A stretch of 32,000 bases of DNA, taken from assembly GCA_016699145.1 (NCBI GenBank), contig CP064962.1:870001-902000 (forward strand). The letters run 5' to 3'. Shown here one piece after another: positions 14,696 through 20,874 of this stretch. Source of the DNA: Candidatus Saccharimonadota bacterium (GTDB lineage Bacteria > Patescibacteriota > Gracilibacteria > UBA1369 > 2-02-FULL-48-14). A program made the translations under genes and the position numbers. The notes beneath the pieces were generated by a model, which worked only from the letters and a program-made list of their open reading frames with translations, was not told where the DNA came from and did not search any database. Numbering within the stretch: the first letter of the stretch is position 1; each line of letters starts with the position of its first letter.

Positions 14696-14749
14696 TGGCG
14701 GAGAGTCAATCATACACAGTTTAGGGTGTTTGCTAAGCAGTGTTTATAA
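14696..14749 (+). repeat. att-like core TGGCGGAGAG + shortened recombinase-tail remnant (copy A)
   Basis: The 10-mer is identical to the tRNA-Ser 3' end. The following sequence matches copies B-D apart from a 33-nt in-frame deletion. Confidence 0.7.
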
Positions 14750-14763
14750 AGTATTTTAACCCC

Positions 14764-15210
14764 ATGCAACTGTTCAAAAAATTATTTACATCGATATTCA
14801 TTTTATTATTTACAGGATGTTCCTCCGAAGTAGAGCTCCCTTCCTATGTAACGACTTATGAGTTGTCCATGGAAACAGCCCAGGAGCTCTCAGAAGGTTT
14901 TTTACTGGCTTTGGACGAGGATCCAGAAAGCACCAAGAAGTTTGTATACGACACATTAGAGAATGGTGAGGACGTACTACAACTCATTGTCGAACACAGA
15001 AGGTTCCAAACTCCACACAGTATAACGGTCACTCAGCTTGAGCATGGGGAAGGAACCCTTCCTACAGGGGAGATTTTCTTCAGAACGAATGCTATCGGTA
15101 CTTTCACCTGCGAAGGGAGTGATCATGCTTCAGATTTTGACCTCATGTGGATGTACAACGAAAAAGACAATCGTTGGGAACTTCTCAGTTTCAATCTTGA
15201 GGCGTGTTAA
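14764..15210 (+). CDS. predicted lipoprotein
   Basis: MQLFKKLFTSIFILLFTGC signal/lipobox. It is the only gene between core copies A and B. Confidence 0.6.
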   Translation: MQLFKKLFTSIFILLFTGCSSEVELPSYVTTYELSMETAQELSEGFLLALDEDPESTKKFVYDTLENGEDVLQLIVEHRRFQTPHSITVTQLEHGEGTLPTGEIFFRTNAIGTFTCEGSDHASDFDLMWMYNEKDNRWELLSFNLEAC

Positions 15211-15223
15211 TTCAAACCTAATC

Positions 15224-15359
15224 TGGCGGAGAGTTGTAGACGACGTTAGAACCGCCATCGAGGCTAATCATACCCAGTTCAATGTCTTTACGAAAACGGT
15301 ATTGGCGAATGGCTTTGGTGGGACTAAATGAGGTGACTTTTAGCGATTTGTCTTTTCAC
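15224..15359 (+). repeat. att-like core + recombinase C-terminal tail (copy B) + conserved block
   Basis: The core is followed by WRRVVDDVRTAIEANHTQFNVFTKTVLANGF-coding sequence. The downstream ACTTTTAGCGATTTGTCTTTTCAC is related to 17401-17425. Confidence 0.75.
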
Positions 15360-15427
15360 TTTACAAGGCCTTTATTGTAGCAGATTTTTCTGCAATAATC
15401 GGGGCACAGTTATTTTCTATTCCATTT

Positions 15428-15820
15428 ATGAAACACTTTTCCTTGTCACTCCTACTGTTAAGCCTTTTACTTAGCGCCTGTGGCGGACCTCAAGTAGCCG
15501 ACTACGCCAATGGCTCCCTGACGTATGATTCCTCTATATGGAACTATAACGCAGAAAGAATGCTTTTGGTCGCGAAAAAGGATGAAACCTGTTGGGTGAA
15601 TTTAACAGGAGGAAACCCTTCTGATATTCTTCCTGGCAGCCTTACAGATAAAGATGCAGTCGTAAATGAGGGAGTGACACTTTACAAAACAAGCACGGGC
15701 GATGTTCCCTTTGCCTCTTTTGAGAAAGATGGAAACACTTTCTACGCTCTCACTGGAGGGATGGATCTTAGCCAAGACCTCTGCATAGGTTACGTTAGCG
15801 CATTGGCTAACGCGAACTAA
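15428..15820 (+). CDS. predicted lipoprotein
   Basis: MKHFSLSLLLLSLLLSAC with a canonical lipobox. It is the only gene between core copies B and C. Confidence 0.65.
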   Translation: MKHFSLSLLLLSLLLSACGGPQVADYANGSLTYDSSIWNYNAERMLLVAKKDETCWVNLTGGNPSDILPGSLTDKDAVVNEGVTLYKTSTGDVPFASFEKDGNTFYALTGGMDLSQDLCIGYVSALANAN

Positions 15821-15921
15821 TGAGTCCGAGAAAAGTCGAACGCCCTTCCTACTTTAGGTAGTGGATTTATACGCTCGTAGCGCATGCTTTGTCATATGTT
15901 TTGTGTTCTCAATAAGTTCTA

Positions 15922-18600: not shown

Positions 18601-18652
18601 AATGAGAATCTAGGCCGAAGTCCGTTCGGCAGAAGTAAAGCAAGCCGCTCAC

Positions 18653-19729
18653 ATGGGGCGCGTCGCCAACCGAGCAGCTGCAATTCCATTACTGGAAGCT
18701 CTCCTTGCCGAAACCGACAAGACGGCAGTGCTTAATGGATTGCGAGCAATAAGAATCGGAGGAAACCCTTTGGGCTTTGAAGCAGGGTTTGAAGCAAAAG
18801 ACCTTCCAGCTATTAAGGAAGCAATTGGTGAAGTTATCGCCCAGATGCGAGAACTGAACGGTGAAGTCGCTGGACTTTCAACTGCTATAAACAAAGGTCT
18901 CGTAGGAACTGCTAAGACTGGACTTGAACAGGAAGGCACTTATGAAACTCAACTCGAAGGTCCTCAAGTGGAATGGGTAAGAAAAGGAATCGAAGCTCGT
19001 TATGATCGTACCCGTCTTGTTAATGCTCCGCTCCTTGAAGAGGAAGGAGTACCTGCTTTCCCCGACAAAGAAGCAGCTCTAAAATCTGCTTTGAAGCAAC
19101 TTACTCGTGAGCAGGTTGCTTACATGATGGAGGAGGGTCGCTCCCCATTTATGTTCCAGATGAAATTGGTTGGACCTAGTAAAAAAGGAATTGATTTGCA
19201 AAGGACTCTTGTTAATGGGCAGCCAAAGAGGATGGGTACACCCAAGCAAGGGCAACAAGAAATGTATGTATGGGAGGGTGCTGAACGTCATTTAGCCAGC
19301 AAACCTGCTGGAAAAACAGAATGGAAATGGGAATTTGTTCAAGGAGAGCAAATCATCGAACCTCAAAAAGAAGATGACGTTAGCTTACTGGTAGAAGACC
19401 GAGTTAAACAGGTAAGACGTGCTAGACCCAAAGGAATGCGAGGTACAGACCGTTATACCTTAGCTACGCTTATGGCAGATGGCTTAGAGGCAGGAAAACC
19501 ACTCGACATTCGCTTCAAAGGAGATGCGATGAATACCGAAGAATATGAAGTGTGGAATGCTACCTTGATGGATGAAGAAGGTGAGTTGACAGAAGGTCAA
19601 TATCGTTGTCTGGTTGGCGGTGGTTTCGTTCCTAATGATCGGTACGCGTACTTGTATAGATTCAGCGTGCTTAATCGGAATGGTGGTGCGCGTTTCCGCT
19701 CCTCGGTTGATGGGTCAATAGAGGCTTAG
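18653..19729 (+). CDS. hypothetical protein (358 aa)
   Basis: Long ORF followed by a clear terminator. The C-terminal GGGFVPNDRYAYLYRF..GGARFRSSV faintly recalls the DUF4256-type ending. The N-terminus may have been severed by the IS30 insertion. Confidence 0.55.
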   Translation: MGRVANRAAAIPLLEALLAETDKTAVLNGLRAIRIGGNPLGFEAGFEAKDLPAIKEAIGEVIAQMRELNGEVAGLSTAINKGLVGTAKTGLEQEGTYETQLEGPQVEWVRKGIEARYDRTRLVNAPLLEEEGVPAFPDKEAALKSALKQLTREQVAYMMEEGRSPFMFQMKLVGPSKKGIDLQRTLVNGQPKRMGTPKQGQQEMYVWEGAERHLASKPAGKTEWKWEFVQGEQIIEPQKEDDVSLLVEDRVKQVRRARPKGMRGTDRYTLATLMADGLEAGKPLDIRFKGDAMNTEEYEVWNATLMDEEGELTEGQYRCLVGGGFVPNDRYAYLYRFSVLNRNGGARFRSSVDGSIEA

Positions 19730-19768
19730 TATTTGAACCTTTTTCTTCCTTAAAACTTTATCTTTTAT

Positions 19769-19796
19769 AGACCGCCGTAAGGCGGTCTTTCTTTTT
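19769..19796 (+). terminator. Rho-independent terminator
   Basis: AGACCGCC-GTAA-GGCGGTCT followed by TTCTTTTT. Confidence 0.7.
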
Positions 19797-19994
19797 CCAA
19801 TTTTACATTCTAAACTACCCGTGGTGGTGAATAGCCACTCTCGCTACTTTGGCGGGGGCTACCACAGGCTCAAGTCCATAAAACAGACCTCGTGTGCCAT
19901 GTGAAGCACAGTCTGGGATGAGAGAAAAAGCACATAACCCATCACGTTGAGCTGAATCTAACGTCACTAAGGACGTTGAAAAACAACTTCATGG

Positions 19995-20831
19995 TTGCGA
20001 CTGCTCGGGAAGAAAGGCAACCCAAGGGCTAAGGAATACGACTTCTGCTTCAAGCCACTCCTCATCTGTGGAGAATGCGAAGGAACCGTGACAGCCGAGC
20101 GTAAACAAAAAATCATCAAAAAGACGGGAAACGTTAAGGAGTATGTTTTCTACCATTGCACCCACAACAAGAAGGATGCCAAGTGTCAGCAACGATCCAT
20201 TGAAGAAGAGGAACTCGAGAAAGCCATGAGGTTAGAAATGGCAAGTTACACCATTCTCCCCCAGTTCAAAGACTGGGCGATTGAGATGCTCAACAAGCAC
20301 AACGACACTGAAATTCAGCAGCGCACGAAGATTCATGAAATGCAATCCAACGCCGTGCTGACGGTACAAGGTGAACTCGATAGCCTCACCCAGATGCGCT
20401 ACCGCAACCTTCTTGATGACGAAGAGTTCTTACGACAAAAGAAACAACTCAAGGCACGACTCGCAAAATTGGAGGAAGAATTGGGAGATACAAAACTAAG
20501 GGCGGAGAACTGGCTGGAACCGACTGAAAAGACTTTCGACTGGATCACCTACGTGGTTCAAAACTACGAGCTGGAAGACTTTGAAGGGCGTAGAACCATA
20601 CTCCAAGGATTCGGTGCGATCTTCGCCATCCGCGACAGGAAGCTAAAAATGCAGCCTCACGAGTGGCTTGTACCCATCGGCGAGAACTACAAACAGCTTG
20701 AAAATGAATACCTTAGCTTAGAACCAGCAGAAAGGGCTTTGCAAAGCGGTGAAAGTGCTGCTTTGGACTCCATTCGTCTACGGTGGCGGAGAGAGAGGGA
20801 TTCGAACCCCCGAGGAGGACAGGCCCCCTAA
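19995..20831 (+). pseudogene. large serine recombinase, C-terminal half only (zinc-ribbon + coiled-coil); 3' end overlaps tRNA-Ser
   Basis: LICGECEGTVTAERKQK ... YVFYHCTHNKKDAKCQQRSIEEEELEKAM is the zinc beta-ribbon region of large serine recombinases. No resolvase catalytic domain lies upstream: there is a stop at 19977-19979 and only about 200 bp back to the upstream terminator. The last 16 codons ([15 protein letters not shown] plus stop, 20784-20831) are the antisense of the tRNA. Confidence 0.75.
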
Positions 20832-20874
20832 CGGTTTTCAAGACCGCCGCTTTCGACCGCTCAGCCATCTCTCC
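20784..20874 (-). tRNA. tRNA-Ser (anticodon UGA), CCA encoded
   Basis: The reverse complement folds as GGAGAGA/TCTCTCC acceptor, anticodon stem GCGGT/ACCGT with loop CTTGAAA, a long variable arm, T loop TTCGAAT, discriminator G and CCA. Confidence 0.9.

Follow-up and report, generated by a model that had tools for sequence, protein, structure and literature searches.

Tandem genomic islands at the ssrA gene of Dehalococcoides are bounded by repeats of the ssrA 3' end and are associated with the large serine recombinase DsiB, a homologue of CcrB (McMurdie et al. 2011; PMC3146451). Fifteen of these islands, about half, have no integration module and were proposed to be cis-mobilizable elements, and no island is duplicated (PMC3146451). 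Attachment sites inside a recombinase gene have been described as well. In myxophage Mx8, attP lies inside int, and the integrase gene acquires a different 3' end when the phage integrates into a tRNA gene (PMC6070905). In the archaeal SSV-type "suicidal" integrases, attP lies in the coding sequence and integration into a tRNA gene splits the integrase gene, an arrangement stated to be exclusive to archaea (PMC8371274). Here, an array of short repeats at the 3' end of a tRNA-Ser(UGA) gene is compared with these systems. The array is found in a stretch of 32,000 nt (hereafter the window; contig CP064962.1, positions 870,001 to 902,000 of the forward strand, assembly GCA_016699145.1). It is likely that the array was formed by tandem accretion of four units of large-serine-recombinase elements, now decayed, at the 3' end of this tRNA gene, and that attP in these elements lay inside the recombinase gene.

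Core repeats, coding tails and the recombinase

The 10-nt core TGGCGGAGAG occurs six times in the window, always on the + strand, at 7890, 14696, 15224, 15964, 17288 and 20784. Only 0.06 matches are expected by chance, and none of 100 shuffles reached six. Two of the copies, at 7890 and 20784, form the 3' ends (CTCTCCGCCA) of tRNA-Ser(CGA) and tRNA-Ser(UGA), both encoded on the - strand (ARAGORN, Rfam). The core is common to the tRNA, to the conserved "tails" that follow the other copies, and to the end of the recombinase gene ahead of the core (the P arm), and the flanks diverge at once on both sides. Within the array, the core copies are spaced by 528, 740, 1324 and 3496 bp. A 94-nt repeat family with 81-90% identity starts at the cores 15224, 15964 and 17288. 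At the core 14696, the conserved tail of ~85 nt lacks 30 nt, and this deletion is in-frame. Positions 15922-15973 and 20742-20793 constitute an exact 52-nt repeat. The tail scores along the window are 16.8, 91.6, 82.3 and 95.7 bits with nhmmer.

Much of this agrees with the initial annotation, which had been made from the sequence alone. It had reported five same-orientation copies of the core, all at the right positions, and had overlooked the sixth at 7890 in tRNA-Ser(CGA). Its module lengths are correct, and the conserved sequence that it had noticed after every core outside the tRNA genes is the 94-nt family, with the 30-nt deletion in the 14696 copy. The gene contents that it had assigned to the modules were also recovered: HSP20 and bPH_2 with Pfam, IS30 with NF033563, and the recombinase remnant with Zn_ribbon_recom and phrog_95, while the lipoproteins were recognized by eye. 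The features of the array are listed below.

7890-7979 (-): tRNA-Ser(CGA) (ARAGORN, Rfam); with the 10-nt core at its 3' end, a potential second attB
14696-14749 (+): junction 1, core (14696-14705) and a tail without the 30-nt P' half-site (WRRV followed by NHTQFRVFAKQCL and a stop); partial nhmmer match, model positions 40-78
15224-15331 (+): junction 2, core and full tail (WRRVVDDVRTAIEANHTQFNVFTKTVLANGFGGTK and a stop)
15922-15963 (+): P arm, the last 14 codons of the recombinase gene, identical to 20742-20783; in-frame translation
15964-16074 (+): junction 3, core and tail, joined to the P arm as an uninterrupted attP-like P-O-P' junction
17288-17383 (+): junction 4, core and the tail nearest to the family consensus, the best-scoring tail of the window (95.7 bits); attL of the youngest unit
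19995-20831 (+): large serine recombinase remnant with zinc ribbon, coiled coil and C-terminal region (Zn_ribbon_recom PF13408, phrog_95)
20784-20874 (-): tRNA-Ser(UGA) (ARAGORN, Rfam), whose last 10 nt (20784-20793) are the core; this core end is attR (P-O-B')

Translation of the tails in the frame TGG CGG AGA gives WRRVVDDVRTAIEANHTQF(N/K)VF…, with a stop after 28-36 codons. The tail thereby continues the frame of the recombinase remnant (…IRLRWRR followed by VVDDVRTAIEANHTQF…). At 15916-16074, the last 16 codons of the recombinase gene, the core and the tail form a single open frame. Other in-frame junctions of P arm, core and tail were observed in L014/P0011 and in P0016 (L and P numbers designate related loci and proteins). 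Codons were compared among 10 unique tails, from the window and other assemblies, with the differences summed over pairs. The recombinase frame has 205 synonymous versus 77 non-synonymous codon differences, and the other five frames have 0-139 synonymous versus 175-291 non-synonymous ones. Of the 20 columns that vary in tail codons 4-27, 13 are third positions, and all four bases occur at each of two fourfold sites. This excess of synonymous differences in the recombinase frame indicates that the tail has evolved as translated sequence. A structured RNA or a tRNA pseudogene was rejected as the identity of the tail, because Rfam recognizes the two tRNAs only, ARAGORN finds no extra tRNA, the folding does not exceed that of shuffled sequences, and the codon-position pattern is that of coding sequence.

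The recombinase remnant corresponds to residues 206-477 of the homologue P0002; residues 1-205, including the catalytic domain, are absent. Unit 4 retains the 3' 60% of the gene, unit 2 its last 14 codons, and units 1 and 3 none of it, and no intact recombinase was found in the window. The remnant reads …DSIRLRWRR and then continues past the core into the antisense strand of the tRNA. Ten recombinase homologues were found, in which conservation ends at …IRLxW(R/L) with no stop before that point. The domains of this family are PF00239, PF07508 and PF13408, and all three (catalytic, recombinase and zinc ribbon) are present in P0005, P0008 and P0009. In P0002, P0003, P0006, P0007 and P0008, conservation is lost exactly at …IRLxW(R/L), and the sequences run into antisense tRNA-Ser or tRNA-Asp; several homologues go on as …ERDSNxRG…, which is the antisense T-arm. 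At least seven homologous open reading frames (ORFs) read through into a tRNA gene without a stop before the core, the genes entered being tRNA-Ser(GGA) in L001, tRNA-Ser(UGA) in L002 and tRNA-Asp in L016. Since these homologues have no stop of their own before the core, we infer that the natural end of the gene must lie beyond attP, in the tail, and consider this argument tight. In L006, a P-arm remnant of the recombinase (ATTCGTCTACGA) adjoins tRNA-Ser(CGA). Left ends and tails were not found for the relatives targeting tRNA-Asp, L016 and L018.

In two islands, the tail and the recombinase are observed at opposite ends. One end of the 2.3-kb island L017 is a variant of the tail (core TGGCTG; …WLRVVDKVRTLIQTHHTEFNIFAKNVL…), and the other is a recombinase remnant that ends in …IRLSWL. 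The 6.8-kb island L019 has a tail at nt 110 and, at the opposite end, a recombinase ending …ICIKWRR at nt 6933. Both tails are identical to the 17288 tail of the window at 16/25 positions, and the recombinase identities are 64% (L017) and 61% (L019). These matched values indicate that tail and body diverge together. A 231-aa ORF containing the L019 tail was considered as a real tail gene and rejected, as its C-terminus matches the end of a large ORF of L008, which points to a deletion fusion. L019 also has an exact 101-nt direct repeat (19-119 and 6998-7098), composed of 91 nt of left flank and the core, before the tail and before tRNA-Ser. Here the flank of the insertion site is duplicated, which is not explained by simple integration.

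The tail is present at other loci. A degenerate DNA pattern for the tail retrieved five genome and five metagenome loci, several of which are duplicates of one another, and no viral contigs; further tails, of greater divergence, came from an exhaustive protein search. Synteny with the window (tRNA-Ser(UGA)-LemA-TPM) is seen in L004 and L012, whose LemA proteins are 52-58% identical to that of the window. Each of these two loci has one core and tail, 1.0-1.5 kb downstream of the tRNA, with one gene between. The same tail is also found in L005-L008, L014 and L015. The order in L007 is retroelement-type genes, P-like arm, core, tail, AAA ATPase gene and tRNA-Ser(UGA), and a second tail further left is 5'-truncated. 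L008 is the left end of an element, with core, tail, promoter-leader and genes, and L015 has ATPase, arm, core and tail. bAvd and reverse transcriptase are encoded in the related elements L001, L016 and L019.

Unit 3, which has no recombinase, is the clearest case of transfer. Its segment at 16071-17175 shows 91.4% nucleotide identity to L021 over 1106 nt, versus amino acid identities of 51% (nitroreductase) and 67% (RRM protein) for the neighbouring core genes. In L021 and in L022-L028, which come from several samples, this hsp20/bPH_2 segment lies directly 3' of tRNA-Ser(GCU). The far end of the L021 segment has the core and a degenerate tail without the P' half-site, and tail and cargo are joined as they are in the window. 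The tRNA-Ser(UGA) site of L021 is empty. Thus, unit 3 is a discrete mini-island that has been horizontally transferred between genomes and is located at two different tRNA-Ser genes. The high identity of the segment relative to that of the core genes shows that recombinase-less units move.

The P' half-site has been lost independently in three tails: 14696-14749, L021 (~10540-10600, - strand) and the second tail of L007 (45-91). In all three, the loss covers the 25-38 nt that directly follow the core, predicted to be the P' half-site bound by the recombinase, and the distal part is kept. Such recurrent loss may immobilise units. A different kind of insert is seen in L012 and L019. At 2684 in L012 and at 6924-6941 in L019, the tRNA-Ser 3' end is repeated over 18 nt (TGGCGGAGAG and a further 8 nt that reach into the T-arm). 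These copies flank a second, very small insert adjoining the tRNA, which measures 586 bp in L012, where it has a 178-aa ORF, and ~146 bp in L019. The crossover point of these inserts differs from the 10-nt core.

The closest relative of the recombinase with a solved structure is the A118/LI integrase (PDB 4KIS; E 5e-8). For this integrase, the distance between the motif of the zinc-ribbon domain and the centre is 5 bp shorter in attB than in attP (PMC3783163). Counted from the first nt of the core, TTCGAACC in the T-loop begins at nt 18 in both tRNAs of the window, and TTAGAACC begins at nt 23 in each of the three full tails. This offset equals the 5-bp shift described for A118/LI, although the comparison was made post hoc and from sequence only. 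Judged by eye, the L017 subfamily has the same motif offsets. The left arm at 17288 (GGTTCTAAGCAAC) contains GGTTCTAA 11 nt from the centre between G6 and A7, mirroring the T-loop motif of the tRNA. By this comparison, likewise post hoc, the left arm would resemble an attB-type half-site.

Proposed mechanism and its alternatives

The host setting would be an integration hot spot in a Peribacteria/Peregrinibacteria genome. With attP within the recombinase gene, the ORF would cross the 10-bp core (the acceptor 3' end of tRNA-Ser including CCA) and stop 28-36 codons later, so that the unsplit ORF on the free element would end in …IRLRWRRVVDDVRTAIEANHTQF… and a stop. Integration into the tRNA would split the gene. 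The body would stay at the tRNA and read into the antisense tRNA, and the last ~85 nt (the tail, or P' arm) would become part of attL, at the end of the insert away from the tRNA. Each core with its tail would then be the left end of one insertion. An autonomous element would have the order tail, promoter-leader, cargo and recombinase, and would target the tRNA-Ser 3' end. The recombinase genes would later have been lost or truncated, and recombinase-less derivatives would persist and could move. Unit 3 was presumably mobilised by a recombinase in trans, like a cis-mobilizable element. The array itself is probably frozen now, because the window has no intact recombinase and a single protein from the source genome is among the homologues.

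Several observations weigh against this reconstruction. No full-length recombinase gene with the tail was found by a word-index search of 5.8 billion proteins or an exhaustive phmmer search of 1.84 billion representatives, nor by DNA-pattern scans of genome, metagenome and viral contigs. Two scans of IMG/VR (protein and alignment) and the context of P0016 gave junction fragments only. The proposal in the initial annotation of a recombinase gene that spans the core is therefore upheld indirectly, by the in-frame junction at 15916-16074, the stop-less homologues and L017/L019, and not by a full-length gene with core and tail in the databases searched. The remaining tails are preceded by short unrelated frames or by a few recombinase codons. 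The GGAG of the core and the GTG at codon 5 of the tail could serve as the start of a separate small ORF. The decay of the tails is not monotonic with distance from the tRNA, and the left arms are heterogeneous between junctions. The right boundary of the shared segment of unit 3 is 112 nt short of the core in the window. Two + strand ORFs stop exactly 13 nt before a core (stops at 14682 and 15210; 14680-14705 and 15208-15233), which random decay does not explain; the corresponding gap in L004 is 15 nt. Finally, the attP-like junctions at 15964 and in L007 are not obtainable from attP x attB alone. Candidate routes to them are attP x attR, integration into a hybrid site, an attL-type circle x attR, or homologous recombination between tails.

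Some of these points would fit an active, integron-like capture platform, in which circular recombinase-less cassettes (tail, gene and left arm) are inserted by a serine recombinase at the recombinase-tRNA junction, each insertion restoring the recombinase C-terminus and regenerating attB for the next capture. The modules have one or two genes, unit 3 is discrete and mobile and is found at two different tRNA-Ser genes, and stops lie 13 nt ahead of two cores. GGTTCTAA of the arm mirrors the T-loop motif at an equal distance from the core centre, and the orders P-O-tail-cargo-arm-O-tRNA (L007) and P-O-tail-cargo-arm-O (15964-17297) are the products expected from an attL-type circle and attR. However, homologous recombination between tails, or accretion and decay, can yield the same structures. 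Such a platform is unlikely, as the window is without an intact recombinase, the relatives have one or two tails only, the left arms are heterogeneous and no circular form was seen. In addition, there is no tyrosine IntI and no attC-like single-strand hairpin (z -0.03 to +1.9), and genes lie on both strands with their own promoters; together with the missing recombinase, these findings also contradict the integron-style platform offered in the initial annotation. Slightly more doubtful still is that the recombinase-less units (tail, one or two genes and attB-type arm) are genuine cassettes, inserted as attL-type circles into the resident attR by a serine recombinase with a directionality factor. 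If this were true, the locus would be a serine-recombinase analogue of the integron in candidate-phyla-radiation bacteria, with the recombinase C-terminus as an occupancy sensor.

The tail might also be an independent conserved feature of the left end, either a small ORF from the codon-5 GTG with the core GGAG as its ribosome-binding site or a DNA site, whose frame matches that of the recombinase by chance. It is never found joined to a full-length recombinase, most copies have the GTG, it is conserved in contexts without a recombinase, and the promoter-leader beyond its stop codon is conserved as well. We regard this as improbable, because the at least seven homologues without their own stop before the core must read into the tail in the circular form, and because there are three independent in-frame junctions. 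Besides, two copies in the window have GTA in place of GTG, the divergence of the tail equals that of the recombinase, and the C-termini of the peptides vary. In-situ tandem duplication of a local repeat, or an assembly artefact, would agree with the single orientation of all copies within 6 kb and with the exact 52-nt repeat, but it is hardly credible: gene content is unrelated from module to module, most differences between the tails are synonymous, a sign that they diverged as functional genes, and the same tail is next to tRNA-Ser in many other genomes. A collapsed assembly, about which the initial annotation had been concerned, is contradicted by the mutual divergence of the repeats, which are too diverged to collapse, by the presence of the same tail at no fewer than 10 loci of other assemblies, and by a source contig of 1.34 Mb. 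Among its own proposals, repeated tandem integration followed by deletion is the best fit, with the cores as att-type scars of a family of large-serine-recombinase elements targeting the tRNA-Ser 3' end. Its remark that this is not a described system does not stand, as tandem islands at a tRNA-like gene with a large serine recombinase are described for ssrA of Dehalococcoides (PMC3146451).

Cargo of the units and probable older island DNA

The four units in the window carry different cargo, and DNA to the left of the array resembles part of the same element family. The features are as follows.

10179-11023 (+): core-less copy of the promoter-leader (10179-10330), without core or tail, and a DUF4256 gene (likely ATG at 10307); repeats, alignment, Pfam DUF4256
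14740-15210 (+): unit 1 cargo, 156-aa ORF with a lipobox-like signal peptide read by eye; stop 13 nt before the next core
15428-15820 (+): unit 2 cargo, 130-aa lipoprotein-like ORF with an LLLSAC lipobox; weak lipoprotein-signal match
16071-17175 (-): unit 3 cargo, bPH_2 (16087-16608) and hsp20 (16634-17086) by Pfam; hsp20 with its own promoter-like site
17176-17287 (+): spacer of 112 nt, ending in the left arm B* (~17233-17287) that holds GGTTCTAA
17384-17566 (+): unit 4 promoter-leader and truncated first ORF, conserved; TTGACA-17-TATCAT at 17471-17499
17584-18289 (-): IS30-family transposase remnant, frameshifted into two ORFs (NF033563, 5.5e-29 and 2.9e-15; phrog_4646)
18653-19729 (+): 358-aa ORF with tblastx matches to L011 and L001; homologue of the gene upstream of Avd and reverse transcriptase in related elements

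Cargo genes with their own promoters are located on both strands, and the leader promoter sits inside unit 4. The 156-aa ORF of unit 1 has no Pfam or NCBIfam match, and the lipoprotein assignments in units 1 and 2 are based on lipobox-like signal peptides judged by eye.

The left arm of the 112-nt spacer is common to the window and L015, with a looser likeness in L006 and L007, and the adjoining genes are unrelated. At 17264-17276 on the - strand, this arm has a terminator-like hairpin, CCAAGATTCTTGG followed by a T-rich run, just 3' of the would-be tRNA end. Given this hairpin, the arm may derive from a tRNA trailer, possibly the native one of tRNA-Ser(UGA). The trailer at the empty tRNA-Ser(UGA) of L021, the closest relative by the hsp20/bPH_2 segment, differs from it.

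In unit 4, a conserved non-coding block of ~90 nt (…GGGTACTTTAGAGCGATTGGCTTTTGAACCTACATCTGTTATTTTG…) lies between the stop codon of the tail and the promoter. Copies of this block are found in the window at 17384-17470 and 10150-10240, in L008 at 293-380, and in L004 on the - strand, after the tail. The 358-aa ORF is a probable target gene of a diversity-generating retroelement, judging from its homologue in related elements. Neither Avd nor reverse transcriptase, nor a relic of either, was found in the window.

The core-less leader copy with its DUF4256 gene is what remains of an older element to the left of the array. By tblastn, the DUF4256 gene is also present in the L019 element. From 8.9 to 14.7 kb, the DNA is probably that of older elements in a more eroded state. 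In this older part of the island, two short ORFs on the - strand, with DUF4096 and DDE_Tnp_1_2 domains, are enclosed by a 19-nt inverted repeat without mismatches, CTAGGAGCTGTTAACATAA (13066-13084 and 13894-13912). The arrangement resembles a small insertion sequence of the IS4/IS5 type whose transposase is split. At 28018-29185 on the - strand, two adjacent ORFs of 298 and 94 aa in a low-GC stretch are, by their appearance, a candidate transposase-type insertion.

Comparison with described systems

The array is closest to the ssrA islands of Dehalococcoides. In both, same-orientation repeats of the target 3' end downstream of an intact gene delimit islands with different cargo, extra conserved sequence lies by each repeat, and the recombinase occupies an island end. 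Both also combine islands that have a recombination module with att-flanked ones that lack it. The recombinase-less unit 3, shared with L021 at tRNA-Ser(GCU) with the same tail-cargo junction, is similar to the cis-mobilizable elements. The paper on Dehalococcoides reports no att site inside the recombinase ORF (PMC3146451). The target there is tmRNA with a 20-bp repeat, whereas here it is tRNA-Ser with a 10-bp core. The Dehalococcoides islands are tens of kb long with dehalogenase cargo; the units here measure 0.5-3.5 kb, their cargo is of retroelement type or consists of small genes, and the host belongs to the candidate phyla radiation.

Arrays with internal att sites are also a concept shared with the ICESt1/ICESt3 family. 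There, deletion of the recombination module and site-specific insertion of a related element beside a recombinase-less, att-flanked island reportedly produced internal att sites (Pavlovic et al., 2004, cited in PMC3146451). These are conjugative elements of Streptococcus with tyrosine integrases, at the fda gene.

Integrons are likewise arrays of short, mostly single-gene modules between repeated recombination sites. They depend on the tyrosine recombinase IntI, folded single-stranded attC sites, attI with the promoter Pc, and co-oriented promoterless cassettes. No Phage_integrase domain was detected in the ORFs scanned between 9 and 22.5 kb. Folding like that of attC is absent from the DNA of arm, core and tail on both strands at three sites (z -0.03 to +1.92). 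The cassette layout is absent as well, since hsp20 and bPH_2 have a promoter-like site of their own and are encoded on the opposite strand. The locus is not an integron.

A118 targets comK and not a tRNA gene, and, to our knowledge, its attP is not inside int. A118/LI-type integrases (PDB 4KIS) have the architecture of zinc ribbon and coiled coil in common with the recombinase described here, and show the same shift of the motif between attB and attP.

As an array, the locus is what accretion and decay ordinarily produce. Its apparent novelty lies in the split serine-recombinase gene, with att inside the ORF, in the host lineage and in the retroelement cargo. If the proposed mechanism is correct, there would be a family of integrative elements, several with diversity-generating retroelements, accompanied by recombinase-less mini-islands that move between Peribacteria genomes; mobile elements of such uncultivated bacteria with very small genomes are poorly known. 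It would also provide a concrete attP/attB pair for the universally conserved 3' end of tRNA-Ser, which is of interest for the engineering of serine integrases. In the literature searched, an att site within coding sequence was found for tyrosine integrases (Mx8 and SSV-type) and for no serine integrase. If the reading holds, no other large serine recombinase is known to have the attachment site in its own coding sequence. Mx8 and SSV integrases are tyrosine recombinases; the present enzyme belongs to the large serine recombinases, and the exchange would involve only its last ~28-36 codons. The recombinase C-terminus would then differ between the free and integrated forms, a built-in switch known only for the tyrosine integrases of Mx8 and the SSV type.

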